DNA from: Candidatus Kaiserbacteria bacterium
GTDB taxonomy: Bacteria; Patescibacteriota; Minisyncoccia; Phycocordibacterales; Phycocordibacteraceae
Assembly: GCA_963813065.1 (NCBI GenBank)
Contig: CAWEXP010000004.1
Span: forward strand, 7,267 to 71,266
Reading direction: 5' to 3'
DNA length: 64,000 bases
The notes beneath the pieces were generated by a model. It was not told the DNA's origin and ran no database searches. It saw only the letters and a program-made list of their open reading frames with translations. Shown here piece by piece: positions 1,576-44,741 of the stretch; position 1 is the stretch's first letter; each line of letters begins with the position of its first letter. A program made the position numbers and the translations under genes.

Positions 1576-4430
1576 AGGTTGAGGATTCTGCCTGGCACGT
1601 ACACTACTCTCTTAGGCTCCTTCCCCGCAAGTCCTGCGGCGACTGCCGGCAAAGCCTTCGCCGCCGCGAGCGCATCCTCCTGCGAGGCATCTGCCGAGAG
1701 CGAAATGGAGCCTTTCCGCTTGCCCGCAACCTGCACCACGACCTCGACTTCGTTCTCGACGAGGAGCGCGGGATCGTAGGTCGGCCACGGCGCCCGATGT
1801 ACACTGCCCTCGCCTCCTATTTTCTCGAACAAATCTTCCGCGAGATGCGGCGCGAAGGGCGCGAGCATGATGACGAAATCTCTGAGTACGAGTGGGGATA
1901 TCTTACTTTGCATCCCCTCGGCTTCAAGGTAATTCAAGAGTGTCATGAGTGCGGCAATGGCTGTATTGAATTTAAAGCGGTCGCAATCTTCGGCAACTTT
2001 CTTCGCCGTCTTTGCGAGCGCGCGTTGGATGTTTTGATTCTCGAAGTCGGACACGGCGTGTCCGACTTTTTCAATCAAACGCACGATGCGGTCCAAAAAC
2101 TTTCGCATGCTCGCGACGCCGTCGAGATTCCAGGGGTAGCTACCCGGCTCATTGTAGGGGCCGATGAAGGCGAGATACACGCGCACTGCGTCGGCGCCGT
2201 ATTCGCCCACCATGTCATCGGGGTTGATCACATTCCCCTTCGACTTACTCATTTTCTGTCCATCAGGACCGAGGATGATGCCGCGATTGAAACGCTCGTG
2301 GAAAGGTTCGCTGGTCGGCACGAGCGCGAGATCGTAGAGCGCTTTGTAGAAGAAGCGCGCATAGAAGAGATGCATGGTGGTATGCTCGCTCCCGCCCGAA
2401 TAGCGGTGCACCGGCAACCACTTTTTCATCAGCGCGAGATTGGAGAACTCGTTCACATTCTTCGGGTCGAGATAGCGGGTGAAGTACCACGAAGAATCAA
2501 CGAACGTATCGAGTGTGTCGTACTCGGGCGTCCAGCCTTCGCCGAAAAGTTTCGTCACGCGCTCGCGCAATTCATTTGACGACGCGAGCGGCGACTTCCC
2601 CGTCGGCTTGAAGTCGACATCGGTCGGCAAGAGCCACGGCAGGTGCTCGGCCGGTATCGCATGCGGCTTGCCCTCTGGATCGTAGACGATGGGGATCGGG
2701 CAACCCCAGTAGCGCTGGCGACTCACGAGCCAATCGCGGAGACGGTACTGCGTGGTCATCTCCCCGCCCGCGAGTGCAACGATCTCTGCCGCTACCTCGC
2801 GATTATTTCTACCAGTGAATTCACCGGAATTAATGAGATACCCGTCTCCAGTCAGAGCAACCTCGGTATGGAGTAATTGCCACATCTGCTTCTGGTGCGC
2901 AGGAACGAGACGATTGAGGACTTCATCTTCGCTCACCCATACGAGCGTATGCTTCGCGGATTCAGACGTATCAATCGCGCCTTGTTTGCTCAACGAGTCC
3001 ACTTCGGCCAAAAGTGCGTAAGCGTGTGCGCAACGATTTTCACCTTTGTGCGAGGCGCAATACCGTGCGGCTGTAATCCACTGCGCACGATGTATGATGC
3101 GAATGTCTTCAAGTGCGGCCTCTTCGCGGATCTCCATGAGCGCCGCCTCTCCGGGCGTTTGTCCCGGCTCGATGCCTCCCATGATCGCGGTTGTGATGCC
3201 TTCGAGCGTTCCGTGCCAATCCAGAAGAGCGAACTTGCCCGTCGACTTGTCGCGCAGATGCACAATCACGGTATCGCGCTTCACTTCCTTAAACTCGGGA
3301 CGTGGCGGATTGCCGGGATCATCGGCACACGGCACCACGACCTGGACGACGGGAATGTTGAACTTCTGCGCAAATTCGAAATCGCGCTCGTCGTGCGCAG
3401 GGACGGCCATGATGGCGCCCGTGCCATAGGAGGCGAGCACGTAGTCAGCAATAAAAATTGGAATCTCTTCTTTCGTCGCGGGGTTAATCGCCGTCACGCC
3501 CTTGAGCTCGACGCCGGTTTTCTCTTTATGCTCTGAACGCTCGCGCTCAGTTTTTTTCTGGGTCGCCTCAATATACGCTTCGATTTCTTTTTTATTTGAA
3601 ACGGCGTCCGACAGGGACGCAACGAGGGCGTGTTCGGGTGCCAGCACGAGATACGTCGCGCCAAAGAGCGTATCGGGTCGCGTGGTGAAAATCTCAATGG
3701 GCTGGACATCGGATGTCCTAACTTCGAATTTGATTTTCGCGCCCTCCGACTTTCCGATCCATGCGCGCTGAGCGTCTTTTATTTCGTCACGCCACGGCAG
3801 AGGGTCGAGATCTTTGAGGAGTCGCTCGGCGTACTGTGTGATTTTCAAAAACCATTGCGTGAGCATTTTTTCTTCGACCGGCGTGCCGCACCGATCGCAA
3901 CAACCATCTTTGACCTGCTCGTTGGCGAGCACGGTTTGATCCTTGGGGCACCACTTAACCGCCGCAAGGCGTCGCTCGGCGAGTCCGTGTTCGAAGAATT
4001 TTGCGAAGAGCCACTGCGTCCATTGGTAATACGAGGGATCGCAGGCGACGACCTCTTTGCTCCAATCGAAAGACGCACCCATCGAGGCGAGCTGGGTCTT
4101 CATCCGCTCAATGTTGGCGAGTGTCCAGGCCGAGGGGTCAGCGCCATGCTTGAAGGCCGCGTTCTCTGCCGGCAGGCCGAACGCGTCGAAACCAATCGGG
4201 AACAACACGTTCTTGCCCTGGAGGCGCAGGAAGCGCGCATAGATATCGGTGACCGCGAAGGCGTACCAGTGCCCGATGTGGAGGTCGCCCGAGGGATACG
4301 GGAACTCGACGAGCAGGTAGTACGGCTCTTTCGCCTCGTCTGCGAGATCGCATTCGTTCAGCTTCAGCTCTGCCCATTTCGCTTGGGCTTTTTTTTCAAT
4401 TTCTTTGTGGTCGAATGTCATGCCTAGCAA
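1566..4430 (-). CDS. leuS: Leucine--tRNA ligase
   Basis: 954 aa. HIGH motif (SGDLHIGHWYAF) and KMSKSKGN present. Full-length class I aaRS with the typical LeuS N-terminus. Confidence 0.95.
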   Translation of the reverse strand: MLGMTFDHKEIEKKAQAKWAELKLNECDLADEAKEPYYLLVEFPYPSGDLHIGHWYAFAVTDIYARFLRLQGKNVLFPIGFDAFGLPAENAAFKHGADPSAWTLANIERMKTQLASMGASFDWSKEVVACDPSYYQWTQWLFAKFFEHGLAERRLAAVKWCPKDQTVLANEQVKDGCCDRCGTPVEEKMLTQWFLKITQYAERLLKDLDPLPWRDEIKDAQRAWIGKSEGAKIKFEVRTSDVQPIEIFTTRPDTLFGATYLVLAPEHALVASLSDAVSNKKEIEAYIEATQKKTERERSEHKEKTGVELKGVTAINPATKEEIPIFIADYVLASYGTGAIMAVPAHDERDFEFAQKFNIPVVQVVVPCADDPGNPPRPEFKEVKRDTVIVHLRDKSTGKFALLDWHGTLEGITTAIMGGIEPGQTPGEAALMEIREEAALEDIRIIHRAQWITAARYCASHKGENRCAHAYALLAEVDSLSKQGAIDTSESAKHTLVWVSEDEVLNRLVPAHQKQMWQLLHTEVALTGDGYLINSGEFTGRNNREVAAEIVALAGGEMTTQYRLRDWLVSRQRYWGCPIPIVYDPEGKPHAIPAEHLPWLLPTDVDFKPTGKSPLASSNELRERVTKLFGEGWTPEYDTLDTFVDSSWYFTRYLDPKNVNEFSNLALMKKWLPVHRYSGGSEHTTMHLFYARFFYKALYDLALVPTSEPFHERFNRGIILGPDGQKMSKSKGNVINPDDMVGEYGADAVRVYLAFIGPYNEPGSYPWNLDGVASMRKFLDRIVRLIEKVGHAVSDFENQNIQRALAKTAKKVAEDCDRFKFNTAIAALMTLLNYLEAEGMQSKISPLVLRDFVIMLAPFAPHLAEDLFEKIGGEGSVHRAPWPTYDPALLVENEVEVVVQVAGKRKGSISLSADASQEDALAAAKALPAVAAGLAGKEPKRVVYVPGRILNLVV

Positions 4431-4468
4431 GGTTAAACCTTAAGAATATGCATCAAGGTTTAACCTTG

Positions 4469-5002
4469 CTAGTCGCGGAAGCGCTTCCAACCAATCCAAA
4501 CCAGCGCGCCGAGTCCGATTGCGGCGATCAGCAAACGAATCCACTCTCCCGCCGTCCCCCAGTACTGCGCCGAGGCGATGACAAACGCGATGACGCCGCC
4601 ATAGGAGAGACCGCTCGACACGATTGAGGAACCAATCGGCACGAAGCCAATAATGAGCGCGAGGATGCCGAGACCGACCATGAGCACAAAGGCATAGAGA
4701 TTGTGTTGGTCGCTCGCCGCCTGGTAGAGCGGCTGGCACTTTGCGTATAGATCGCAATAGCCTGTTGTGGCCGGAGCGGCGCCCTTGGCAGGAAGTGGCG
4801 CAGGAGCATTCTCGGTCCAGACACCGCCCGCAGAATCGCAAGCAGAAGCGGTCAGCGTCGTGGACACATTGCTCGGGCAGTAGGTGTTGTAATCGGGCGC
4901 CGGCAGAGCGAGGCTGGTGAGGACACCAAAGAAAATATTCAAAATGACGACGATGCCGACGAGGAGTGCCCACCGGACAAACTTTGGGTGTTTGTTTTCC
5001 AT
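4469..5002 (-). CDS. Hypothetical integral membrane protein. Start placed at MENKHPKF; leaderless.
   Basis: Hydrophobic helices. ATG at 5002..5000 lies 6 nt downstream of TATAAT. The upstream residues in the ORF track (YNPP) are simply the promoter read in frame. Confidence 0.45.
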   Translation of the reverse strand: MENKHPKFVRWALLVGIVVILNIFFGVLTSLALPAPDYNTYCPSNVSTTLTASACDSAGGVWTENAPAPLPAKGAAPATTGYCDLYAKCQPLYQAASDQHNLYAFVLMVGLGILALIIGFVPIGSSIVSSGLSYGGVIAFVIASAQYWGTAGEWIRLLIAAIGLGALVWIGWKRFRD

Positions 5003-15378: not shown

Positions 15379-15398
15379 GATGTTATAGGTTATCTCTG

Positions 15399-17861
15399 CT
15401 AATCTTTGCCACCGAACGCGTACACCCGCTCCTTCAGCCCGCGCACGAAGCCGAAGAGACCCTCTGGGTACTTCGCTTGGATGATTTCCTTCTTCGCGTT
15501 CATGTTGGGCAGGAGGAACGCCTCCGACGAGAGGTTCTCTTCGCCGCCGCTCTTGTACTTCTCCATGATGTCGCGGATGGCTTCGCCGATGTCTTTGCCG
15601 TAGTGGTCGAGCATCTGGGCATTGGCACGCATGAACTGCTTGACGCGGTCTTCGCGGGTCAGGAGCGGAGCATCGAAGGCGATGTGGGCTATCACGTCGA
15701 AGGCGTCGCTGTCCTCCAAGTTCTCGATGGACTTGATGAGCGGGATGTTGACGCGCTTCGCCTCCAAGTCCGCGATAAGGCGCTCGCGCTTCTCCGGGTC
15801 GAGCCAGACCGCACGCAGTTCGTCGGTCGTGTGCACCATCTCGGCTATCTTCTCGCCGGAGTATTTGCGATACTCCGCCTTCGAGAGTTTTATGCCGTCG
15901 AACTCTATTTCTATTTCCTCGTCGACCGTAACTACGATGCCTTTGACGGTTATCTTCTTCGGCGCACCCTTGAGCGGCTTCAAGCGGAACTCGTACGGCG
16001 TTTCCTCCTCGGACTTGTGCGGTTCGAGACGCTTGGAGAGACCTTTGTAGTCCGCGTGCTCGACGCGTACCGTAACCTCGTCGTTCGAGGGCAGACCGAA
16101 AATCTTGAAGAAGCCGTCGGCGTCCGTCTTGCCAATCTTCTCCCAGCGTCCCAGTTTGACCTTCACCACAGCACTCGCCACGTGCTCCTCGGTCTTGTTG
16201 TCGACTACGATGCCGGTAATCAGTTTGTCGAAGGGCGCTATCGGCTCCGCCGGAGGCGTAGGCGGTGCTGGCGGCTTCGGTGCAACGTCCCACTCGTCCA
16301 AGAGCCGGGTCGCATTGGTGAAGTCAATGATGCGGAAGAAACCCTTGCCCTCGAAGAGCCGTGAGCCGCGCCCCATAATCTGCTTGAAGAGCACGCGCGA
16401 GGCGATGGGGCGCATGAACACGATGTTCTGCACGTGCGGGATGTCCACGCCGGTCGAGAGCAGGTCGACCGTCGTAGCGATGACCGGCATCGGGCGCTCC
16501 TTGTCGCGGAAGAGCGTGAGGTCGTCCTTGTCCTCCGCCACGACACGCGCGGCGTAGTCCTCGCGCCCCTTCAGTTCGTTCAGTTTGTCCTTCACTGCTT
16601 GCGCGTGCGCCATGTCGACACAGAAGACAATGGTCTTGCCGTACTTGTTCGTATCGTCGAGTACCTCGATGACCTTCTGCGAGAGCAGGTCTATCTGTTC
16701 GGGGATGGTAACGGCGCGTTCGTACTCGGAGGGTTCGTAGAAGTCCTTGATGTCCTCCGGCTCGACTTCGTCGTCGTAGATAACCTCTTCTGCCGCAGCG
16801 ACGGAAAGACCCTTGCGATAGAGGTTCGTGGTTACCTTGTAGATTTTATACGGCACGAGATAGCCGTCTTGGATTGCTTCTCCGAGAGAGTATTGGAAGA
16901 CCGGCTCGCCGAAGTAGTCGTACACGTCGATGTTGTCTTCGCGCCGCGGCGTCGCGGTCATGCCGAGTTGCGCTGCACCACCGAAGTGCTCCAAGATGTC
17001 GCCCCAGTCGCCGTAGCGGGAGCGATGGCACTCGTCGATGATAACGAGGTCGAAGAAGTCGGAGGGTATCTGCTTGTACAGGTCGCCTGCGAAGAGCGTC
17101 TGGTACGTGGCGAAGTAGATGTCGCGGTTGCGGTTGAAGTCGCCGCCCTCTATCTTGGCGCGCGCCTCACCGAACGGCTCGAAGTCGCGGCTGTAGGCGT
17201 CATCGCGCAGGATGATGCGGTCGCAGAGGAAGAGCACGCGGTGTATGGACTTCGATTTGACGAGTTTCCAGACAATCTGGAAGGCAGTGAAGGTCTTGCC
17301 GGTGCCGGTCGCCATCGTGAGAAGCGTCGTCTTCTTGCCCTTGGTGATGTTCTCGACGACCGCCTTTATCGCGGTCTCCTGATACGCACGCGGGCGCTTC
17401 GTGCCGCTCACGTGGAGTGGGTATTCGAGCGCGGAGAGGTTCTTGTCTTCAAGCCCTTTCCACTCTACGTATGCCTTGAACATCTCTTCAGGCGAGAGGA
17501 AGGATGAGACCTCCTCCGGGGCTTTCATCGTGCGACGGTCGTAGAGGTACGTGGTCTTGCCGTTGGAGATGTACGCGAAGGGCACGTCGAGGCGCTGCGC
17601 GTAGTCCTGCACCTGCGTCATGTGCTTCATCGGGTCTTCGTCCTCCGCCTTCGCTTCGAGCACCGCTACTGTTACGTTCTGGTAGATGAGGACGTAGTCG
17701 GCGAAGAGCGCCGTGGGCAGGCGCTTGTATTCCTCGCCTTCGACGTAGAAGCGGTCGTCGGAAATGGGATAGTTGCGGAGCAGATACTCCTCTTTCCACC
17801 CGGCATCATGTATCTGCGGGTCGATGAGTTTTACGCGCGTGTCGTCTTCGGAGTAAGCCAT
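15399..17861 (-). CDS. hsdR: Type I restriction enzyme R subunit HsdR. Carries an inserted carboxypeptidase-regulatory-like beta-sandwich domain and an EcoEI_R_C-like C-terminus.
   Basis: TMATGTGKT Walker A. IIDECHRS DEAH box. ITGIVVDNKTEEHV...TDADGFFKIFGLP CarbopepD_reg-like segment. C-terminal ELRAVWLDPEKRERL... Confidence 0.9.
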   Translation of the reverse strand: MAYSEDDTRVKLIDPQIHDAGWKEEYLLRNYPISDDRFYVEGEEYKRLPTALFADYVLIYQNVTVAVLEAKAEDEDPMKHMTQVQDYAQRLDVPFAYISNGKTTYLYDRRTMKAPEEVSSFLSPEEMFKAYVEWKGLEDKNLSALEYPLHVSGTKRPRAYQETAIKAVVENITKGKKTTLLTMATGTGKTFTAFQIVWKLVKSKSIHRVLFLCDRIILRDDAYSRDFEPFGEARAKIEGGDFNRNRDIYFATYQTLFAGDLYKQIPSDFFDLVIIDECHRSRYGDWGDILEHFGGAAQLGMTATPRREDNIDVYDYFGEPVFQYSLGEAIQDGYLVPYKIYKVTTNLYRKGLSVAAAEEVIYDDEVEPEDIKDFYEPSEYERAVTIPEQIDLLSQKVIEVLDDTNKYGKTIVFCVDMAHAQAVKDKLNELKGREDYAARVVAEDKDDLTLFRDKERPMPVIATTVDLLSTGVDIPHVQNIVFMRPIASRVLFKQIMGRGSRLFEGKGFFRIIDFTNATRLLDEWDVAPKPPAPPTPPAEPIAPFDKLITGIVVDNKTEEHVASAVVKVKLGRWEKIGKTDADGFFKIFGLPSNDEVTVRVEHADYKGLSKRLEPHKSEEETPYEFRLKPLKGAPKKITVKGIVVTVDEEIEIEFDGIKLSKAEYRKYSGEKIAEMVHTTDELRAVWLDPEKRERLIADLEAKRVNIPLIKSIENLEDSDAFDVIAHIAFDAPLLTREDRVKQFMRANAQMLDHYGKDIGEAIRDIMEKYKSGGEENLSSEAFLLPNMNAKKEIIQAKYPEGLFGFVRGLKERVYAFGGKD

Positions 17862-33080: not shown

Positions 33081-33088
33081 AACTTTTG

Positions 33089-33197
33089 TGGACCCTAGCG
33101 GATTTGAACCGCTGACCCCCTCATTGCAAATGAGGTGCTCCCCGCCCGACCGAGCGGCCCTGTGGAGCTCGGCCGTTCGGGCGGGTACCAGCTGAGC
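33089..33197 (-). pseudogene. Partial tRNA-Ala(UGC) copy (D-stem to 3' end, lacks the 5' acceptor strand) carrying a 45 nt GC-rich hairpin in the D-loop.
   Basis: GCTC-AGCTGGTA-[CCCGCCCGA...TCGGGCGGG]-GAGC then CCTCA-TTTGCAA-TGAGG, T arm, AGGGTCCA. It sits 11 nt downstream of the intact tRNA-Ala(UGC). Confidence 0.55.
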
Positions 33198-33208
33198 GAA
33201 CGACTGTG

Positions 33209-33281
33209 TGGACCGTACCAGATTTGAACTGGTGACCTCCTCATTGCAAATGAGGCGCTCTACCAACTGAGCTAACGGCCC
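33209..33281 (-). tRNA. tRNA-Ala (anticodon UGC).
   Basis: Manual cloverleaf. Acceptor GGGCCGT/ACGGTCC with G3:U70. Anticodon loop TTTGCAA. Confidence 0.85.
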
Positions 33282-35516: not shown

Positions 35517-36872
35517 TTACCCACGCAAGCCGCGCGAGCGAGCGCGACGATGCCGCGCGAGTGAGAAACGATGTGCCTCAGCATTCGCCCGCACCGCATC
35601 AACCTCGGTGACGCCCGCGAGGCGTGCGCCGATTACTTCGCGGGGGCGATGGCGCTCATCCTTGACCACTGCCGCCACAGGAATCGAGATGCCCGCGTCG
35701 GCGAGCACCGCCTCGGCCGCCTTCTTCTGTGGCTTGCCGCCGTCCACAACGATGGCACTGGGCAATTCCCACTCTGGGTGCCCGAGTCGACGTGAAAGAA
35801 TTTCGCGCAATGAGGCGATGTCGTTATTCAAATTCCGCCCATGTTTGGACTTCGTAAGTCCCTTAGCGCCCGGACTTACGAAGTCCCCGCCCCGAATGCG
35901 AAAAGTCCGGTAGTCTTTTTTTGCCGGTACGCCATCAATCAGCACAGTCATCACACCGACCGCATTGGTACCCGCGAGATGCGCGGTATCGTAGGCTTCA
36001 ATCCGGTATCCACTATTCCCTGCTATAGCAGATTTTTGTGGATACCTCCCCGTCTCACGACTCTCATCTTTAATAAGAGAGACGTCCTGGATATGATCGA
36101 GCGCAAAGAGTTGTCGTCGCGCGGTAGCCGCATCCTCGAAACGCTCTTCGCGCGCGGCAAGAGTCATCTCGCGCATGAGCGTCTTGCGCAATTCTTTGCC
36201 GCGCCCAGCCAGAAACAGCGTGACATTGCGAATCGACTTCAAATACTGCTTTCGATCGTAGTCGCGGGGATACTGCCCTATCTGCGTATTGAATTCTATT
36301 TTTGCGCGGTGATGTTTGTTGGTGGCGATGACCGGTTTCTCGGTATCGAAGAATGGGAAAATGCGTCGAATGAGTCGCAAGCCTTCGCGCAACTGCGGGC
36401 CGGAGGGATAGGGGCCGAAAATCGCCCGCAAGGCGACGCCTTGGGAAGTTGCCTTTAAGGCGTCGCCTTGAATACGGCGATTCTTAAAATCGAGATCTTT
36501 GCCGCGCACGACGAGTACGCGCGGAATGTCTTCTTTCGTGATGACGGCGTAGAGAAAGGTCGAATCATCTTTGCCATCGCTGTTCGCTGGCGGCATATGT
36601 TTCTTAATCAACACCGCCTCGCGCACCAGCGCCTCGAGCACGGTCGGTGTCGGCTCGTAGGCGAGACCGTCAGCCCGCGTCACCATGTCCACGATGCGCG
36701 GCCCGCGTGTGGCGATCAGGTCGTCGTCGAAATAGCTTCGCACGCGATCGCGCAGGCTGGTCGCCTTGCCCACATAGAGAATCTTCCTGCCCTGTTTAAA
36801 AAAATACACACCCGGCACGTCGGGCAGATCATATTTCTTGAGTTCGGCTCGTTCCATATCGTTAGTGTGCAA
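35517..36872 (-). CDS. uvrC: Excinuclease ABC subunit C (GIY-YIG, UVR and RNase-H-like endonuclease domains; no C-terminal HhH). Carries two in-frame palindromic-element insertions.
   Basis: VPGVYFFKQGRKILYVGKATSLRDRVRSYF (GIY-YIG). MREMTLAAREERFEDAATARRQL (UVR). RIEAYDTAHLAGTNAVGV. Extra IQGDALKATSQGVALRA and GDFVSPGAKGLTKSKHGRN segments versus canonical UvrC. Confidence 0.85.
   Translation of the reverse strand: MHTNDMERAELKKYDLPDVPGVYFFKQGRKILYVGKATSLRDRVRSYFDDDLIATRGPRIVDMVTRADGLAYEPTPTVLEALVREAVLIKKHMPPANSDGKDDSTFLYAVITKEDIPRVLVVRGKDLDFKNRRIQGDALKATSQGVALRAIFGPYPSGPQLREGLRLIRRIFPFFDTEKPVIATNKHHRAKIEFNTQIGQYPRDYDRKQYLKSIRNVTLFLAGRGKELRKTLMREMTLAAREERFEDAATARRQLFALDHIQDVSLIKDESRETGRYPQKSAIAGNSGYRIEAYDTAHLAGTNAVGVMTVLIDGVPAKKDYRTFRIRGGDFVSPGAKGLTKSKHGRNLNNDIASLREILSRRLGHPEWELPSAIVVDGGKPQKKAAEAVLADAGISIPVAAVVKDERHRPREVIGARLAGVTEVDAVRANAEAHRFSLARHRRARSRGLRG
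35847..35886. repeat. Palindromic element type A pair (GGACTTCGTAAGTCC, 10 nt spacer, GGACTTACGAAGTCC) inside uvrC, in frame.
   Basis: Inverted 15-mers. Left flank cccatgtt is shared with the uvrA and uvrB copies. Encodes ...PGAKGLTKSKHG... Confidence 0.8.
36430..36469. repeat. Palindromic element type B pair (AAGGCGACGCCTT, 14 nt spacer, AAGGCGTCGCCTT) inside uvrC, in frame.
   Basis: Two inverted 13-mers, each a small hairpin. Encodes IQGDALKATSQGVALRA, which is absent from canonical UvrC. Confidence 0.7.
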
Positions 36873-36894
36873 TACAAGTCGGTTTTAGGCGAGA

Positions 36895-36924
36895 CTTGAC
36901 ATATCGCGAAGTAATCGACTATGG
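36895..36924 (+). promoter_or_regulatory. Sigma-70 promoter (TTGACA, 18 nt spacer, TATGGT) for the small membrane protein gene.
   Basis: Boxes at 36895-36900 and 36919-36924. AAGGAG SD before ATG at 36961. Confidence 0.5.
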
Positions 36925-36960
36925 TGCACGAGTTCGCAACCGCCCGACAAGGAGATTGTC

Positions 36961-37233
36961 ATGACTGTTCTAGCCTTGATCATTATGTGGGGAGGTACCG
37001 CCGCGCTTATGTGTCTCGCCTGGTATGTCTACCAGAACTGCAAGACGCCAGAAGAATTCGAGCTCGGCGCCAAACAAATCCTTGGACTTTTCATCGTCAT
37101 TTTCGCTCTCGTCAGTCTCTTTGACTTCTGTAACGACACTATGCATTGGTTCTACTTCGGTCTCCTCGGTTCGCTCGCCGTCGGCACTACAACCGTGGTT
37201 CGCCGAATCTTCTGGCCACAGCCAGCCGTCTAA
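36961..37233 (+). CDS. Small membrane protein (90 aa, 3 TM).
   Basis: Strong SD, hydrophobic helices, terminator downstream. Confidence 0.5.
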   Translation: MTVLALIIMWGGTAALMCLAWYVYQNCKTPEEFELGAKQILGLFIVIFALVSLFDFCNDTMHWFYFGLLGSLAVGTTTVVRRIFWPQPAV

Positions 37234-37235
37234 AC

Positions 37236-37263
37236 CACAACCGCCCTCGGGCGGTTTTTTCTT
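37236..37263 (+). terminator. Rho-independent terminator (aaccgccctcgggcggtt plus T6).
   Basis: Stem at 37239-37256 plus T run. Confidence 0.75.
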
Positions 37264-37276
37264 ACTTTGCGAGAGC

Positions 37277-37305
37277 TTGACAAGAACTCTATTGGCGTGT
37301 ATATT
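37277..37305 (+). promoter_or_regulatory. Sigma-70 promoter (TTGACA, 17 nt spacer, TATATT).
   Basis: Boxes at 37277-37282 and 37300-37305, upstream of ATG at 37344. Confidence 0.5.
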
Positions 37306-37343
37306 GGCATGCGAGAGTTCACCGTCAATAAGGGAATGGTGTC

Positions 37344-37652
37344 ATGAGCAATTCGAGCATCAAAAACAGCATAGACCATGTCTTGCTGAAAGATCCGCCG
37401 AAATCCGAAGACCGGGACGGCGCCATCGCGCAGCTGAGGCGCCTATCGGCGAAACAGCTCGCGAACTTGTGCGAAGATCTCGACTATCTTCTTTCGCTCC
37501 GTAATCATCCGGTGCGACTCGAACTGACGAAGGTCTACAACAGTCGCCGTGCGTTTTACCAAAACGTACGTCGCGTGCAAGAAGTCGCCAATCAATATCG
37601 CGTTCGCACGGCAGAAGAGCGCGGATACAACCCTGAAGAGATATATGTTTAA
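37344..37652 (+). CDS. Hypothetical protein (102 aa).
   Basis: ORF with promoter and terminator. No domain recognised. Confidence 0.4.
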   Translation: MSNSSIKNSIDHVLLKDPPKSEDRDGAIAQLRRLSAKQLANLCEDLDYLLSLRNHPVRLELTKVYNSRRAFYQNVRRVQEVANQYRVRTAEERGYNPEEIYV

Positions 37653-37664
37653 CGCCCTTTGAGA

Positions 37665-37730
37665 GACCGGGAGCAATCCCGGTCTTTTCTTTATCTAAAA
37701 GTTAGGACACGGCGTGTCCTAACTTTTTTA
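37665..37730. terminator. Two tandem terminator hairpins. The second (gttaggacacggcgtgtcctaac) is bidirectional and overlaps the uvrA stop.
   Basis: Hairpin 37665-37684 plus T run. Hairpin 37701-37723 flanked by an A run and a T run. Confidence 0.65.
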
Positions 37731-40439
37731 TTTCTTTAATTTCCGCTTCAACACTTTCGCGAGATACTGGCCGGTGTAGGAGTGCTCGTTGTCGGCGACT
37801 TCTTCCGGCGTGCCCTTCGCGATGACCTTGCCACCCTTCACGCCACCCTCAGGGCCGAAGTCGATGAGATAATCGCTCGACTTGATGACATCGAGATTGT
37901 GTTCGATAACCACGACCGTGTTGCCGCGACGCACGAGCTCCTGCAAAATTTCTATCAGCTTGCGCACGTCCTCGTAGTGGAGGCCGACCGTCGGCTCGTC
38001 GAGGAGATAAATCGTTTTCATCACCATCGGGCGATAGAGCTCCGAGGCAATCTTCACGCGTTGGGCCTCGCCACCCGAGAGCGTCGTTGCCGATTGGCCG
38101 AGGGTGAGATATTCCAAGCCGGTCGCCTTCAGAGATTCGAGTCGGTCAGAGATCGCGGGAATGTCTTTGAAAAATTCAAGCGCTTCCTCAACCGTCATCT
38201 GCAGGACTTCATAAATATTTTTGCCATGGAAGCTGACTTCGAGTGTCTCTTTCATAAAGCGCTTGCCCTCACAGACATCGCACGTGACGTACACCGTCGG
38301 GAGGAAATGCATCTCGACCGCGATCTGCCCGTTGCCCTGGCAGGCCTCGCAGCGGCCGCCCGGGACGTTGAAGGAGAAGCGGCCCGGCCGCCAGCCGCGC
38401 GCACGCGCCTCCGAGGTCGCGGCGAAGAGGTCGCGAATATGCGTCATCGCGCCGGTGTAGGTTGCGGGATTGGAGCGCGGCGTGCGCCCAATCGGCGACT
38501 GATCGATCAGCACGGTGCGACCGACGTACTCGGTGCCGGCCATCGAGGCGACGTGCTGGAGCTTGGCTTCCCTCTTCGCGAATCGCGCCGCAAGATTTTT
38601 ATGCAAAATATCGTAGAGGAACGTCGACTTGCCACTTCCGGAGACGCCCGTGATGCAGACCAGCTTGCCGAGCGGCACATCCACATTTTGATTCTTCAGA
38701 TTGTGGAGTGTCGCACCACGAATCATAATCTTGCCCTTCTCGCTTTCGCGGCGATCCTCGGGTGTCGGGATTTCTTTTTCGAGGCGCAAATAATCGAGCG
38801 TAACGGAGCCCGAGTCGTTGTGCGGCGTGGTCAGGAGGTCGTCGAGCCAGCCTTGCAGCGACGACCTTCCCGCCGTGCGTGCCCGCGCCCGGACCAATGT
38901 CCACAATGTAGTCGGCGGCGTAGATAGTATCCTCGTCGTGCTCGACGACCACGATGGTGTTGCCGAGCTCCTTCAGCGCAAGCAGAGTCTTGATGAGGCG
39001 ATCATTGTCGCGCTGATGGAGACCGATGGTCGGCTCATCGAGCACGTACAAGGCACCCGTGAGCCCCGGCCGAGCTGGGACGCGAGACGGATGCGCTGGG
39101 CCTCGCCGCCGGAAAGGGTCGCGGCCGAGCGATCGAGGGTGAGATAGTCGAGACCAACATTGAGCATGAAGGTGAGGCGGCTGTTGATCTCGCGCAAGAT
39201 TGGTGCGGCGATATCTTTTTTCATTTCCGAAAGTTCGAGCGAATCGACAAACTTCTTCGCGTCGCCGATGGACATGTTCACAAAGTCAACAATGTTCACA
39301 CCCAGCCCATGTTCGGACTTCGTAAGTCCGGATTCCGAAGAGGACTTACGAAGTCCCCCCATTCCCTCCGACTTCAAGTACACCCGCAAAGCCTCGGGGC
39401 GCAGGCGCTTGCCGAGACAGACCGGACACACTTCCTCGGAAAAAAGTGACTCGGTGCCGAGACCGTTACAGGCCGGGCACGCACCATAGGGAGAATTGAA
39501 GGAGAAGAGTCGCGGCTCCACCTCCGGAAATGAGGCACCGTCCTCGGGGCAAATAAATTTCGACGAGAGCGTCTCGGTCGTGCCGTCCGCGTGTTTAATT
39601 TTTACCAACCCATCAGACTCTTTGAGCGCCAGCTCGAGCGCCTCGGAGAGTCGTTCACGCGCGCCTGCGGTCGAACGCGAGAATTCAGAAACGAAAATAG
39701 TGTCGACAACCGCGTCGATGTCGTGACGCTTGTTGCGGTCGAGTTCGATCTTCTCGCGGAGCGACTGCGATCTTCCCATCAATCATCACTTTTTCATATC
39801 CCTTGCCGAGAAGGTCGTAGAGCAGTTGGTAGTACTCGCCTTTGCGACCGACGACCACCGGCGCATAAATAGTCACTGCGCTCTTGTCGACAACGACCAC
39901 ATCTGCCAAGGTCGAACCTGAGAATTCGGATTTAAGGTTCGACCTTGACGCCGTGCGTCGACGCGCGTGAGCACCATTTTGATCATTTCTTCTTTCGACA
40001 ATTTTACAATCGGGACATCGTGATGGATGCAGTACGCCTGGCCCGCGCGCGCATAGAGGACGCGGAGATAATCGTAAATCTCGGTCACCGTCGCCACCGT
40101 CGAACGCGGATTGTTGGAACGACTTTTTTGGTCGATAGAAATCGCGGGCGAGAGGCCGGTAATCTCATCCACGTCTGGTTTCGCCATCTGGTTGAGGAAT
40201 TGTCGCGCGTAGGCGGAAAGCGATTCGACATAGCGACGCTGACCCTCGGCAAAAATAGTGTCGAACGCGAGCGAGGACTTCCCCGAGCCCGAGAGGCCGG
40301 TGATGACCGACATCGCCCCGCGCGGCAATTGTACGTTGATATTTTTCAAATTATGGGTGCGCGCACCCTTCACCACGAGCCAGTCGCTCCCGTGCTTGTG
40401 TTCGTGTATCTCCTTCGCGCTTTGTTTTTTGGTTGCCAT
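37728..40439 (-). pseudogene. uvrA: Excinuclease ABC subunit A with at least four frameshifts (five overlapping ORF fragments). One in-frame palindromic-element insertion.
   Basis: Fragments 39873-40490 (MATKKQ...[25 protein letters not shown]), 39685-39909, 38973-39782 (Zn finger CPVCLGKRL..., [16 protein letters not shown]), 38599-39051 ([13 protein letters not shown]...GPGAGTHGG) and 37728-38906 (second ABC domain). Confidence 0.8.
39315..39356. repeat. Palindromic element type A pair (GGACTTCGTAAGTCC, 12 nt spacer, GGACTTACGAAGTCC) inside uvrA, in frame.
   Basis: Encodes GGLRKSSSESGLTKSEHG inserted between the VYL... and ...MSIGDA segments, relative to E. coli UvrA. Flank cccatgttc. Confidence 0.8.
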
Positions 40440-40495
40440 GTATGGTAATCGCCCGTCCGTGGCGGGACAGGTTCGGGCGCATTCTAGCATTGAAC

Positions 40496-42614
40496 TTAGC
40501 TTCCAGAAAGCGGCTTGCGCGTGCGACCTTTTTTCTTCGGGCCCGTGCCTTCAAGTTTATAAATCTCGTCACGGATGAGTGCGGCCGTTTCGAAATCAAG
40601 TTTCTCGACCGCTTCCGCCATCTCGTCGCGCTTCTGCTTGATGAAGGCCGTCGGGTCATCGCGGTACGCAAGCTTGTCGAGCACGAGGAGTTCGTCAATC
40701 GTCTTCTGGTGCTCGGTGCGCATCGACGCGGCAATGTCGTGAATCTCTTTGTGGATGGTCTGCGGAGTGATGCCGTGCGCCTGGTTATAGGCGAGCTGGA
40801 TGGCGCGACGACGATTCGTCTCCCCAATCGCCTTCTCGAGAGAGCCGGTCATGACGTCGGCATAGAGAATCACTTTACCGAGTACGTTACGAGCGGCTCT
40901 GCCGATGGTCTGGATGAGCGACGTCTCCGAGCGCAGGAAACCTTCTTTGTCGGCGTCGAGAATGCCCACGAGCTCCACCTCGGGCAAATCCAATCCCTCG
41001 CGCAGGAGGTTCACGCCGACGAGAATGTCGAACTTCCCTTTGCGGAAGTTGGTGAGAATGTCGATGCGGTCAATCGTCTTTACGTCGCTGTGGAGGTACT
41101 CAGCTTTTATTTTTTTCTCGCGCAAGAATTGTGCCAAGTCCTCGGCCATCTGTTTGGTGAGCGTGGTCGCGAGCGCTCGGCCACCGCCCTTGATGGTCTT
41201 CTCTGCTTCTTCAATAAAATCCGCCACCTGTCCAATGTAGGGTTTCGTAAATCCTACATGCTCGGAATGTGGGGACTTCGTAAGTCCGGACATGGGCTCG
41301 GCTCCTTCAGTTACTGGACGAATCACCAGTTCGGGATCAATGAGACCCGTTGGGCGAATAATTTGTTCGACCACTTGCTCGGAGTGCGCCTTCTCGTACG
41401 GCCCCGGTGTCGCGCTCGTGTAGAGTGCTCTGACCAATCCGATTTTCAAATTCTTCGAAGCGAAGCGGACGATTGTCGCGCGCCGAAGGGAGGCGGAAGC
41501 CGTATTCGACAAGCACATCCTTGCGCGATTTGTCGCCCGCATACATGCCGCCAATCTGCGGGACGGTGACATGCGATTCGTCGATGACCGTTAAGAAATC
41601 TGCTGAGCCGTCTTTTTTATGAGGAAAGTATGACAAAAGAGTGTGCGGCGGTTCGCCGGATGCGCGACCGTCGAAGTGGCGTGAGTAATTCTCGATACCG
41701 CTCGTGTAGCCAATCTCGCGGATGAGCGCGAGGTCGTGGAGCGTGCGACGCTTCAAGCGTTCGGCCTCGAGCGGTTTCTCCTCGCGCTTAAACTTCGCGA
41801 GCTGTCCTTCGAGCTCAAGCTTGATGTCTTCGATAGCGCGCACACGTTCCTTTTCGCTACTCACGAAGTGCTTGGCCGGAAAGACGAACACCGAATCGGG
41901 CTCGACCACTTTAGCGCGCGAGACCGGGTCGAGCTGGTGCACCGAAGAAACGACATCGCCATCGAAGGTCGCGCGATAAATCACCTTTTCGTTCACCGGC
42001 ATGAACTCGACCGCATTCCCCACTGCGCGGATCTTGCCCGGCTCGAGGTCGGCATTGGTCCGCTCGAAATAAATCCGGATGAGCTGGCGAATCAATCCTG
42101 CGCGACCACCTTCAATCGCCTTGCCGCGCACAATCTTCACGTGCACTTTCTCATATTCCTCGGGCGAGCCGAGACCGTAAATCGCGGAGACCGACGCGAC
42201 GATAATCACATCCTTGCGCGTGAGTAGCGCTTGCGTCGCCGCGTGGCGGAGACGGTCAATCTCGGCGTTAATCATCGCCTCTTTCTCGATGTACGTATCG
42301 GAGTGCGCAATGTACGCCTCGGGCTGGTAGTAGTCATAGTAAGAAACGAAATAGTGCACCGCGTTCTCGGGGAAAAATTCGCGATATTCCTGCGCGAGCT
42401 GAGCTGCGAGCGTCTTATTGTGCGCGAGGACGAGGGTCGGCTTGTCGAAGTGGGCAATAACATTGGCACAGGTGAAGGTCTTGCCCGAGCCGGTGACGCC
42501 GAGCAGAGTCTGGTGGCGCATGCCCTTCTCTAACCCCTCCTCGAGTGCGCGAATGGCCGCCGGCTGATCGCCTGCGGGCTGGTAGGGGCTCTGCAACTTG
42601 AAATTGCGCGACAT
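40496..42614 (-). pseudogene. uvrB: Excinuclease ABC subunit B with one +1 frameshift near 41430-41445. One in-frame palindromic-element insertion.
   Basis: N-terminal fragment 41337-42614 (GVTGSGKTFTCANVIA...FEEFENRIGQ). C-terminal fragment 40496-41572 (ALYTSATPGPYE...LVGVNLLREGLDLPEV...UVR tail). Junction ggtcagagcactctac. Confidence 0.8.
41240..41285. repeat. Palindromic element type A pair in uvrB (degenerate GGTTTCGTAAATCC plus GGACTTCGTAAGTCC, same orientation), in frame.
   Basis: Encodes MSGLTKSPHSEHVGFTKPYI between PVTEGAE and QVADFIEE. Flanked by ATGTAGG/CCTACAT and ATGTGG/GGACAT inverted ends. Confidence 0.75.
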
Positions 42615-43517: not shown

Positions 43518-44741
43518 TCAAGCGTAATAATTCCGCACGAAATCGTCGCGATAGGTGTCGAAGGTGCCATCGAGAATCGCCGCGCGAGCACCGTCGACGA
43601 GCGAGATGATGAAGCCGAGATTATGGAGCGAGCAGATGACCGAGCCAAGCATCTCCTTGGAGCGGATGAGGTGCGCGACATAGGCACGCGAGAATCCTTC
43701 AACTCCTGCGATAGGAGTTTCAGGATCTAACGGACCAAAGTCATTTTTATATTTTTCGCCAGTCAAGTGAATGATGCCTTTCTTTGTATAGATAGAGCCG
43801 TGCCGACCAATGCGTGTGGGCGCGACGCAATCGAAGAGGTCCATACCGTTCGCAATGCCCTCGAGGATATCGCCCGGCTCGCCGATGCCGAGGAAATGCC
43901 GCGGCAATTCATCGGGCAATTCGCCGACGGCGGCCTGGAGCGCGCCGCGCATATCTGCCTTGCTGAAGGAGCCGCCAATACCGATGCCATCGAAACCGAG
44001 CGAGGCGATCTCGCGCGCGCTTTCTTTCCGCAAATCTTCGTGTCGCCCGCCCTGCACTATTCCAAAAATTCCCTGCGTTTTACTGGCTTCAAGATTTTGC
44101 CGATGTGCCTTCAGAGAACGCGCGGCCCACTTGTGTGTGCGTTCCATCGCCTCGCGTTGATACTCGTAGGGCTCGGTGGGCGAGGTACATTCGTCGAAGG
44201 CGAAGAACATATCGGCGCCGAGCGCGTGTTGAATCTCGATGGAACGCTCGGGCGTGAAGCGATGGAGCGAGCCGTCGAGATGACTGGTGAAGGTGACGCC
44301 TTCGTCGTCGACAATAGCGAGCTGTCCATGTTGCGATGCAACGCCCTCGTCATAGACAGAAATATCGAGGTTTAACCTCGATGAGGATTCTTCTTTGGTA
44401 AATTTTGAAATCTCGCGACCGAATGCCGCGCCGAGCGAGAAAACTTGGAATCCGCCCGAGTCGGTCATCGTAGGGCCTTTCCAATTCATAAACTGCGCGA
44501 GGCCGCCACCTTCCTGCACAATCTGCTCGCCCGGCGAGAGGTAGAGATGGTAGGTGTTCGCGAGCACGACCTGTGCGCCAAGAGCCGCGAGCTGGCTCGG
44601 TAGGACGCCCTTCACGTCGGCCTTGGTGCCGACAGGGACGAATGCAGGCGTCTGGATGACGCCGTGCGGCGTCGTGAGGATGCCCGCTCTTGCCCTGAGC
44701 GAAGTCGAACGGGTCTGTATCTCGAACCGGAGTGCACTCAT
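43518..44741 (-). CDS. tgt: Queuine tRNA-ribosyltransferase (tRNA-guanine transglycosylase).
   Basis: 407 aa. TPHGVIQTPAFVPVGTKADVKG, MTDSGGFQVFSL and Zn-binding C-terminus. Confidence 0.9.
   Translation of the reverse strand: MSALRFEIQTRSTSLRARAGILTTPHGVIQTPAFVPVGTKADVKGVLPSQLAALGAQVVLANTYHLYLSPGEQIVQEGGGLAQFMNWKGPTMTDSGGFQVFSLGAAFGREISKFTKEESSSRLNLDISVYDEGVASQHGQLAIVDDEGVTFTSHLDGSLHRFTPERSIEIQHALGADMFFAFDECTSPTEPYEYQREAMERTHKWAARSLKAHRQNLEASKTQGIFGIVQGGRHEDLRKESAREIASLGFDGIGIGGSFSKADMRGALQAAVGELPDELPRHFLGIGEPGDILEGIANGMDLFDCVAPTRIGRHGSIYTKKGIIHLTGEKYKNDFGPLDPETPIAGVEGFSRAYVAHLIRSKEMLGSVICSLHNLGFIISLVDGARAAILDGTFDTYRDDFVRNYYA

Follow-up and report, generated by a model that had tools for sequence, protein, structure and literature searches.

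The window (the whole 64-kb stretch of DNA analyzed, from a Candidatus Kaiserbacteria contig) carries on its minus strand the excision-repair genes uvrC (35517..36872), uvrA (37728..40490) and uvrB (40496..42614), and the short palindromes within these genes are genuine copies, inserted in frame, of a small REP/REPIN-like hairpin repeat. The uvrC gene is an intact 451-aa ORF that is identical to the database protein P0001 over 446 aa, and a Logan re-assembly of it contains the same elements. In this assembly, four 1-nt indels divide uvrA into four reading frames and a single one, near 41430, splits uvrB; the palindromes are not the cause of these frameshifts. The statement in the initial annotation that every insertion keeps the reading frame thus holds locally, but not along the full length of uvrA and uvrB as assembled.

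Structurally, the basic unit is an imperfect palindrome of about 27 nt with a 15-nt core, in which CATG(T) and 2-3 nt lead into a 6-bp stem (GGACTT, or GGGTTT/AGGTTT), a CGT or ACG loop, the complementary stem, 2-3 nt and (A)CATG. Hairpins of the form GGACTT-CGT/ACG-AAGTCC are present in uvrC, uvrA and uvrB, and two units inverted relative to each other make up a doublet of 36-54 nt, as in REPINs and BIMEs. The motif GGACTTCGTAAGTCC and its reverse complement occur exactly in uvrC (35847-61 and 35872-86) and in uvrA (39315-29 and 39342-56). The uvrC doublet (35835..35888, minus strand, 54 nt) reads GG-GGACTTCGTAAGTCC-GGGCGCTAAG-GGACTTACGAAGTCC-AAACATGGGCGG on the coding strand and encodes GDFVSPGAKGLTKSKHGR, whereas the uvrA doublet with its conserved flank (39304..39356, minus strand) reads GGACTTCGTAAGTCC-TCTTCGGAATCC-GGACTTACGAAGTCC-GAACATGGGCT and encodes GLRKSSSESGLTKSEHG. 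Folded as single-stranded DNA, doublets form hairpins with 15-bp arms (z -4 to -6), with ∆G of -18 kcal/mol (z -5.7) for the uvrC copy and -16.2 kcal/mol (z -4.3) for the uvrA copy. In uvrB, unit a (41267..41293, minus strand) is a long hairpin of 27 nt whose coding strand reads ATGTCC-GGACTT-ACG-AAGTCC-CCACAT with GAGCCC before it, and it includes an exact copy of the 15-nt motif at 41273-87; unit b (41235..41259, minus strand) reads ATGTA-GGATTT-ACG-AAACCC-TACAT on the coding strand and includes GGGTTTCGTAAATCC at 41240-54. The paired inverted 15-mers described earlier are therefore exact in uvrC and uvrA, but the two uvrB units lie in the same orientation, 18 nt apart, and do not form an inverted pair. 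Unit b, previously taken for a partly degenerate copy, is actually a sister subtype (GGGTTT-CGT-AAAyCC) that flanks a transposase gene in related genomes: it is tagged GTAG...CTAC on the plus strand (41237-41257) and matches in subtype both the RAYT-flanking hairpins GGGTTT-CGT-AAACCC of L046/L047 and the lone unit within L050 UvrB. The left flank that the sites share, cccATGTt/c, is confirmed and forms part of the element, reading AAACATGGGCT on the coding strand.

These units are far more frequent than composition would predict. At up to three mismatches, the 15-nt motif has 13 matches in the 64-kb window versus 1.21 expected (13 were reached in 0/100 shuffles), and hairpins centred on TT(CGT/ACG)AA with a stem of at least 6 bp number 5 versus 0.02 in shuffles. 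Alignments of UvrC, UvrA and UvrB to PDB structures reveal clean extra segments of about 14-24 aa that are absent from the solved Uvr proteins, which bears out the earlier placement of 15-25 aa segments at positions uninterrupted in canonical Uvr proteins. The UvrC site is empty in P0002/L040 (RG/FKKNDD) and in 74/120 homologues, L040 lacks the UvrA insert (YLKG-KNDKTLGT-NIVDF), which L022, L029 and L038 carry at that position, and the UvrB site is empty in L051; empty sites for all three genes thus exist in close CPR relatives that are 70-82% identical, and many orthologues hold decayed copies (P0003, P0017, P0034, P0108). These comparisons support the view, already put forward in the initial annotation, that the uvr units are lineage-specific in-frame insertions and not ancestral protein features.

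Beyond the three window sites, the doublet was found at 38 loci, spread over about 20 MAGs of Patescibacteria and a few Chloroflexota, where the initial annotation had considered a motif restricted to three places, with peptides shared by orthologues, as the sign of ancestral features. One fragmentary Saccharibacteria MAG (CAYJVW01) has 11 doublet loci and several other MAGs have 2-3, compared with 3 sites/64 kb in the window, and the same elements are found in independent assemblies from many studies. The loci were collected by an exact-match search, so hairpin identity among most of them is built in; in the sole independent comparison, window versus L041, the hairpins are 30/30 identical versus 71% identity in the flanks. 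The supposed concentration in one functional pathway dissolves at this scale, since the hosts have many functions (aminoacyl-tRNA synthetases, Tgt, Dus, Rpe, DHFR, Zwf, Pol III delta/delta' and Ogt) and also include intergenic DNA, with ~75% of CGT/ACG doublets inside genuine ORFs of diverse function. Five of the six reading frames are in use, with inserts in frame and stop-free, whereas the sixth frame carries TAA; the ACG unit is most often read as GLTKS. Units are arranged as inverted pairs in 37 cases versus 1 direct, and the conserved 3' flank AAACATGGGCT lies on the coding-strand 3' side in every case. Spacer subtypes recur among unrelated host genes, which indicates that whole doublets are copied. 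The TTCGTAA/TTACGAA core is constant across subtypes with differing stems, and the identical 15-mer is common to phylum-level different CPR lineages. Units of the main family are tagged CATG(T)...(A)CATG, and GTAG...CTAC occurs in some units only (window 41237-41257; P0016).

The earlier guess of a dedicated transposase gains substance from six related genomes in which a Y1/HUH transposase gene is associated with hairpins of this family, and is flanked by them in L017, L026, L045, L046/47 and L048. In L017, a 221-aa ORF matches Pfam Y1_Tnp (PF01797) with 30.7 bits versus a cutoff of 23, and its sole NCBIfam match is the REP-associated tyrosine transposase (NF047646; E 1.8e-11), at 44 bits and thus under the equivalog cutoff of 80; one hairpin lies 32 nt before its start, a doublet lies 6 nt after its stop and one unit lies inside. 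Hairpins of the form CATGAA-(G/A)GGTTT-CGT-AAACC-TTCATG (0.02 expected per 64 kb) lie on both sides of the homologues in L026, L045, L046/47 and L048, and in L006 variant-loop (CCG/CGG) hairpins occur just upstream of the gene and inside it. Each transposase gene has an internal copy of the matching hairpin subtype, in frame and at a conserved position. The family comprises 1,580 homologues, labelled 'transposase' in Kaiserbacteria, Paceibacterota and Minisyncoccota; the gene, apparently present in single copy, is well conserved between lineages (63-77% identity), with invariant HUH histidines H78 and H80 and tyrosine Y138. Although PDB matches by sequence are weak (E~0.8), the top 23 PDB matches of the predicted fold, a moderately confident model (pLDDT 57), are only IS200/IS605 TnpA and TnpA-REP 4ER8. 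The protein is a Y1/HUH enzyme, and we regard it as a candidate RAYT-type transposase. A tblastn search of the 64-kb window returned no RAYT-like gene; one homologue (P0137) shares a Kaiserbacteria contig with the doublets of L005 and L007, and the window's own genome presumably encodes the enzyme as well.

How does this family compare with known repeats? Like REPs and REPINs (BIMEs), it consists of short imperfect palindromes, mostly in inverted doublets able to fold into a larger hairpin, with several subtypes per genome, and in related genomes it shows a REPtron-like layout, with cognate hairpins on both sides of a single-ORF Y1/HUH transposase gene and a REP abutting the stop codon. Unlike classic REPs, which are mostly extragenic, about three quarters of its copies are intragenic, the core spans just 15 nt, CATG(T)/(A)CATG replaces GTAG or CGTC as the tag (with only some units beginning GTAG), phylum-level CPR lineages have the 15-mer in common, an in-frame REP occupies a conserved position inside the transposase gene, and that transposase falls under the NCBIfam RAYT equivalog cutoff. 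The likeness to Rickettsia palindromic elements drawn in the initial annotation is apt for a dispersed repeat family that behaves in the same way, with palindromes that sit in frame at permissive sites of housekeeping genes in a reduced genome, seem to be translated and are absent from orthologues. However, lineage and sequence are unrelated, a candidate transposase adjoins the repeats here, and RPE-1, at about 100-150 bp, is much longer than the units described here. The transposase resembles those of IS200/IS605 elements (IS608, ISDra2), its best structural matches, in fold, in HUH and Tyr motifs and in its predicted recognition of sub-terminal DNA hairpins, but a full-length element with left and right ends is missing, as is tnpB, and the hairpins are dispersed alone in trans. 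Novelty implied earlier was overstated: REPs within genes, including in-frame copies in uvrA, uvrB and other repair genes, are known from other phyla, where dimers encode 20-30 aa and numerous copies lie in uvrA/uvrB/excinuclease and tRNA-related genes, and RPE-4 and RPE-6 are CGTC-type REPs that interrupt R. conorii uvrB (Di Nocera et al. 2013, PMC3733652). The present elements share with these intragenic REPs their in-frame position, dimers of ~20 aa and frequent location in uvrA/uvrB/excinuclease, tRNA synthetase and tRNA-modification genes. REP-like elements inside genes, excision-repair genes included, are thus already known in other bacteria and apparently new for CPR; what is new here is the CATG tag in place of GTAG/CGTC, the mostly intragenic location and the CPR-wide range. 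In a literature search, the 15-mer had no match in any paper found, and no REP/RAYT paper found mentioned Patescibacteria.

Taken together, the units are very probably REP/REPIN-like non-autonomous hairpin elements. We posit that a RAYT-type Y1/HUH transposase, conserved across Patescibacteria, would recognise the hairpin in single-stranded DNA, where a doublet could fold as one long hairpin, and copy it to new sites; such mobilisation is suggested by the transposase genes bracketed by matching subtypes in relatives. Survivors would mainly be insertions into permissive protein surface loops that preserve the frame (27 nt = 9 codons) and are stop-free (five of six frames open), and since there is hardly any intergenic space in these genomes, it is within such loops that insertions would mainly persist. 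The inserts would probably be translated as short Gly/Ser/Lys/Pro-rich loops (GLTKS, GLRKS, DFVSP, DLRSP, TYEVP), with some loops in UvrA, UvrB, UvrC, Tgt and LysRS serving as recurrent hot spots that different repeat families would fill in different lineages. CPR proteins contain unexplained lineage-specific insertions, and CPR genomes are nearly devoid of intergenic DNA; a hairpin repeat that has a candidate cognate transposase would offer a concrete source for part of these insertions, and would extend REP/RAYT biology to a huge uncultivated group through a REP family surviving mostly within genes. Such inserts inflate apparent protein divergence, open alignment gaps at hot spots and can pass for functional motifs, and the recurrence of REPs in uvrA, uvrB and uvrC across unrelated phyla can now be tested in a second, independent system. 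A broader version, to which we give rather less than even credence, is that the RAYT-type transposase is superphylum-wide and apparently vertically inherited, that mini-REPINs turned mainly intragenic are a principal source of the lineage-specific loop insertions in CPR housekeeping proteins, with hot spots in repair and translation enzymes, and that the in-frame REP in the transposase gene is autoregulatory.

The hairpins might instead be kept for a function in RNA, e.g., in stabilising mRNA, pausing ribosomes or serving as binding sites. Doublets are stable as RNA (∆G about -30 kcal/mol, z -3.4 to -4.9), the flank is strictly oriented relative to the coding strand, the hairpins of the window and L041 are identical amid diverged flanks, and the core is conserved though stems differ between subtypes, but this last feature equally fits a transposase recognition element. 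An RNA role leaves unexplained the hairpin-bracketed transposase genes, the intergenic copies and the decayed copies, and Rfam has no family matching the uvr palindrome sites. We consider it unlikely, and at most an added function, not an alternative origin. One version would make the hairpins anticodon stem-loop mimics and substrates of tRNA enzymes, e.g., TadA, which edits mRNA hairpins in E. coli: we take the loop UUACGAA to be that of tRNA-Arg(ACG) and UUCGUAA that of tRNA-Thr(CGU), and A-to-I editing would turn the Thr of GLTKS into Ala. It is highly improbable that the transcripts are substrates of TadA-type editing by virtue of the UUACGAA loop.

Local, independent origin by replication template switching or hairpin-templated repair, with immobile palindromes and convergent sequences, draws on two observations. 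Perfect short hairpins in general are twice as frequent in the window as in shuffles (108 versus 50), and the long imperfect palindrome at 36005..36046 (minus strand; RYP...GYR), the third hypervariable site of UvrC, is orthologous in UvrC homologues, where paired changes in both arms keep its symmetry, as arm-to-arm correction would. Template switching, though, would copy the neighbouring sequence instead of a constant motif, it gives no reason to expect the transposase association, and identical 15-mers with the same flank and spacer subtypes lie in unrelated genes of phylum-level different lineages, which makes this origin very improbable for the family described here. DDE-type MITEs are likewise short, dispersed and built of inverted repeats, with filled and empty sites; however, no consistent direct repeat flanks the filled sites when compared with empty ones, elements of 27-54 nt are far below typical MITE length, and the associated gene has a Y1/HUH and not a DDE fold, so we see barely any case for them. 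Scarcely credible, finally, are ancestral or selected peptide motifs of CPR Uvr proteins, which the prevalence of GLTKS could suggest but which the five reading frames, intergenic copies and empty sites in UvrC, UvrA and UvrB of relatives refute, and assembly artefacts, given the recurrence in independent assemblies and in the Logan re-assembly of the window's uvrC.

For the local excess in uvr genes, the transposition mechanism itself gives no explanation. Palindromes of other families also occur there, at 36005-36046, 36429-36470 and 39907-39947. A third-family doublet in uvrC (36429..36470, minus strand; CAAGGC-GAC-GCCTT...CAAGGC-GTC-GCCTTG) encodes QGDALKATSQGVAL at the second hypervariable UvrC site, and a second-family doublet of 41 nt in uvrA (39907..39947, minus strand) reads CAAGGT-CGA-ACCTT-AAATCCGAATTCTC-AGGT-TCG-ACCTTG and is 1 base short of the in-frame orthologous copy in L029. 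Translational-bypass elements ('byps') are known from Magnusiomyces mitochondria. Like the mitochondrial coding palindromes of Nematomorpha (PMC6649704), they resemble the present repeats as short GC-containing palindromic mobile inserts in protein-coding genes; unlike byps, the repeats here are in frame and without stops, so no bypass is needed. Bypass was also rejected for the frame-breaking 39907-39947 copy, whose frame break is explained by the 1-nt indel relative to its orthologue. Outside the uvr genes, an intergenic doublet of the AAGGT family (4424..4472; CTAGCAAGGTTAAACCTT-N13-AAGGTTTAACCTTGCTAG; ∆G -18.9 kcal/mol, z -8.3) lies between a stop codon and the start of the next gene, and a single hairpin unit in tgt (44364..44382, minus strand; ATCGAGGT-TAA-ACCTCGAT) occupies the same loop that bears GGACTT doublets in the orthologues L007 and L031.

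The 15-mer GGACTTCGTAAGTCC, a hairpin with a 6-bp stem and a 3-nt loop, was found in uvrC, uvrA and uvrB, all on the minus strand, at exactly the positions reported in the initial annotation: as inverted pairs with its reverse complement in uvrC (35847-35886, minus strand, 10 nt apart) and uvrA (39315-39356, minus strand, 12 nt apart), and as a perfect unit in uvrB (41273-41287, minus strand) that adjoins GGGTTTCGTAAATCC at 41240-41254. The inverted pairing proposed for all three sites holds for uvrC and uvrA but not for uvrB, where the units share one orientation and lie 18 nt apart. At up to three mismatches, the 15-mer had 13 matches in the window versus 1.2 expected, a count reached by no shuffle, and TT(CGT/ACG)AA-centred hairpins with stems of at least 6 bp numbered five versus 0.02 in shuffles. 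In alignments to solved structures, each uvr site appeared as a clean extra segment of ~14–24 residues between blocks that are contiguous in solved UvrC, UvrA and UvrB. UvrC of the window also carries a CAAGGC-GAC-GCCTTG doublet at a second hypervariable site (36429-36470, minus strand) and a long palindrome at a third (36005-36046, minus strand). A second family, AAGGT-N3-ACCTT with spacer AAATCCGAATyCTC, is present in uvrA (39907-39947), as an intergenic copy (4424-4472), as a single unit in tgt (44364-44382, from comparison with orthologues), and at UvrC sites of other genomes.

Structurally, with copies oriented by coding strand, the basic unit spans ~27 nt and comprises CATG(T), 2–3 nt, a 6-bp stem, the loop CGT or ACG, the complementary stem, 2–3 nt and (A)CATG. 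Doublets of the CGT/ACG family consist of two inverted units (37 inverted versus one direct), with a conserved AAACATGGGCT invariably on the coding-strand 3′ side. Their spacers are often palindromic themselves, and host genes with no relation to one another contain the same spacer subtypes (CTCGTCATATGGG in uvrC of locus L029 versus CCAGTCATATGGG in holB of L015; TCTTCGGAATCC in uvrA versus TTCTGCGGAATCC in uvrC of L041), which indicates that whole doublets are copied as units. Single-stranded doublets fold into one hairpin with 15-bp arms, at −16 to −18 kcal/mol as DNA (z −4.3 to −5.7) and ~−30 kcal/mol as RNA. Since most loci were found by exact match, hairpin identity among them is circular; the sole independent comparison, window versus L041, gave 30/30 identical hairpin bases versus 71% flank identity, and many homologues defined by protein sequence carry decayed copies.

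Of the 120 closest UvrC homologues (62–100% identical), 74 lack any insert at the site ...FRIRG|...|NDDIASL, 43 carry one, drawn from at least four palindrome families, and three fall outside the site pattern. The empty DNA of one homologue (P0002, locus L040) reads CGC GGC|TTC AAG AAG AAT, whereas the window, L041 and L029 each carry 54 nt there, and a single 27-nt hairpin, AATGTA-GGACGT-CGT-ACGTCC-TACATT, fills the site in another (P0016). L040 also has an empty UvrA site. The UvrB site, a 9-residue linker in ordinary bacteria, is empty in L051 (70% identical) and holds one unit with a 16-bp stem in L050 (82% identical), GCCCATGCGG-GGGTTT-ACG-AAACCC-CCGCTTGGGC, where the window has two. Empty sites in relatives, proposed initially as a check, exist for all three genes and, together with the extra segments relative to solved proteins, support the initial reading of lineage-specific insertions. 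Comparison of filled with empty sites revealed no consistent target-site duplication. Other candidate phyla radiation (CPR) UvrB genes, in L060, L052 and L054, have unrelated inserts at the same linker, one of them PPVIARSGATKQSCL, encoded by GTCATTGCGAGGAGCGGAGCGACGAAGCAATCC, and that of L054 a ~100-nt palindrome. At an otherwise empty UvrC site, the protein P0024 reads ...FRIRGLTKSDDIASL, with GLTKS lacking a hairpin insert, which at the protein level could be either coincidence or a footprint.

Beyond the uvr genes, an exact-pattern scan for paired hairpins in one genome per prokaryotic species returned 38 loci. Nearly all belong to Patescibacteria (Saccharibacteria, Paceibacterota and Kaiserbacteria, as well as Nealsonbacteria, where the loop is a CCG/CGG variant), and three are on Chloroflexota contigs. 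These three (L013, L024 and L028, high-GC Chloroflexota/Anaerolineaceae MAG contigs) carry the variant-loop doublet GGACTT-CCG/CGG-AAGTCC, which could reflect horizontal spread, binning contamination or an independent family. About three-quarters of the loci lie inside long genuine ORFs, the remainder being intergenic or in gene leaders, and the host ORFs (Dus, Rpe, cysteine desulfurase, Tgt, LeuRS, LysRS, ValRS, GluRS, Zwf, DHFR, Pol III delta/delta′, Ogt, a helicase, UvrA and UvrC) span many functions rather than the single pathway in which the insertions had been thought to concentrate. Units are read in five of six frames (GLRKS, DFVSP, GLTKS, DLRSP and TYEVP), and the sixth, which contains TAA, was never seen as a reading, which argues for a DNA element filtered by open-frame selection. 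GLTKS as a selected peptide is rejected by the five frames in use, the intergenic copies and the empty sites.

The Saccharibacteria locus L017 encodes a 221-aa ORF that scored 30.7 bits against the Pfam Y1_Tnp model (cutoff 23), and whose sole NCBIfam match, at E 1.8e-11 and below the model's equivalog cutoff, was 'REP-associated tyrosine transposase' (RAYT). The ORF is preceded, 32 nt before its start, by a GGACTT unit whose stem spans 12 bp; a doublet starts 6 nt past its TAG stop, and one in-frame unit lies inside the gene. Homologues occur in L026, L030 and L006, loci fetched solely for containing a doublet, and a database search returned 1,580 homologues (63–77% identity among the best 120), which are labelled 'transposase' in Kaiserbacteria, Paceibacterota, Minisyncoccota and 'Patescibacteria group'. 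CATGAA-(G/A)GGTTT-CGT-AAACC(C/T)-TTCATG hairpins bracket the gene in four further genomes, the upstream one stopping a few nucleotides short of the start codon and the downstream one following directly on the stop. The 'degenerate' uvrB unit of the window (41235-41259, minus strand) has essentially the core seen in L046/47, GGGTTT-CGT-AAACCC. Shortly before the HUH motif, each gene contains an in-frame unit that matches its own subtype, GGACTT in L017 (4762-4784) and the GGGTTT/GGATTT type in L026, L045, L046 and L048, and this segment is a low-confidence loop in the predicted model. In every RAYT-like gene examined, the internal unit sits at a conserved position (~codons 48–58, consensus ...MxDFVNPSF...), and it may be an autoregulatory site. 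Two HUH histidines and one tyrosine are invariant, and the top 23 PDB matches to the predicted core fold were only IS200/IS605 TnpA and E. coli TnpA-REP with a REP hairpin (4ER8); PDB sequence matches for the transposase profile were weak (E~0.8). The doublets of L005 and L007 share their Kaiserbacteria contig with the database protein P0137. No transposase homologue was found within the 64-kb window, and we infer that the gene is present in its source genome.

The elements are consistent with a REP/REPIN system whose transposase, of the RAYT type, would mobilise the units, and the inserts would be translated with their host genes. Hairpin-bracketed RAYT-like genes in related genomes support the dedicated transposase guessed at initially. 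The report of Di Nocera et al. on intragenic REPs (PMC3733652) makes the comparison drawn then with Rickettsia palindromic elements apt: REPs can lie in ORFs, dimers that encode 20–30 residues account for over half of these inserts, and many interrupt genes for DNA synthesis and repair, among them uvrA, uvrB and the excinuclease complex in Opitutus terrae, Thioalkalivibrio and Rickettsia conorii (RPE-4/6), with tRNA synthetase and pseudouridine synthase genes also hosts. Unlike classic REP families, however, these elements carry a CATG(T) tag rather than GTAG/CGTC, have a very short core, are mostly intragenic, share the 15-mer across phylum-level CPR lineages, and include a REP copy lodged within the transposase gene. 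A literature search found no papers linking RAYT or REPIN with CPR and none with the 15-mer, and we therefore class the elements as a variant of the known REP kind, apparently new. The hairpins could also have an RNA-level role, which would not replace the mobile-element explanation; Rfam matches in the window were tRNAs and LOOT only, with the palindromes matching no known RNA family, and the UUACGAA/UUCGUAA loop regions, which we take, speculatively, to resemble the anticodon loops of tRNA-Arg(ACG) and tRNA-Thr(CGU), would be one feature of such a role.

Within the window, a scan for short inverted repeats, with detection that is not uniform across genes, placed REP-like doublets at three sites in uvrC, two in uvrA, one in uvrB and one intergenic, to which comparison with orthologues adds the tgt unit. 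Given that the uvr genes make up ~10% of the window, this local excess is striking and echoes the 2013 report, though it comes from that non-uniform detection. It may stem from permissive loops that large multidomain proteins offer, or from a lineage in which selection on excision repair is relaxed, the latter suggested by frameshifts in uvrA and uvrB. The initial view that every insertion keeps the reading frame is correct locally, but in this assembly four 1-nt indels break up uvrA (37728-40490), near 39934 (within a palindrome), 39760, 39060 (in a run of G) and 38860, and one near 41430 breaks up uvrB (40496-42614). The orthologues in L022, L029 and L038 are intact, the window's other long genes look intact, and the indels could mark incipient pseudogenes or errors of local assembly. 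Deleting the 41-nt uvrA element restores the frame; translational bypass or an intron is rejected for it, as the intact L029 orthologue has the element in frame and the window copy is 1 nt shorter. Palindromes as the cause of the frameshifts are likewise rejected, the four other breaks being plain 1-nt indels away from palindromes.

UvrC in this clade (window 35517-36872; P0001-P0120) is only 411–463 aa long and terminates directly behind the RNase H-like endonuclease domain, without the C-terminal (HhH)2 domain of canonical UvrC (~600 aa). Elsewhere in the window, two long same-strand ORFs (14089-16293 and 15399-17861, minus strand; 734 and 820 aa) share ~900 nt, read in different frames, and could represent another frameshifted large gene or a chance open frame. 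A LOOT RNA (Rfam RF03000; 22160-22275, minus strand) scored 84 bits, well over the gathering score, and fits a Patescibacteria-like source. Two tandem tRNA-Ala(TGC) genes (33088-33160 and 33208-33281, minus strand), ~50 nt apart, have identical anticodon arms and different acceptor and D arms.
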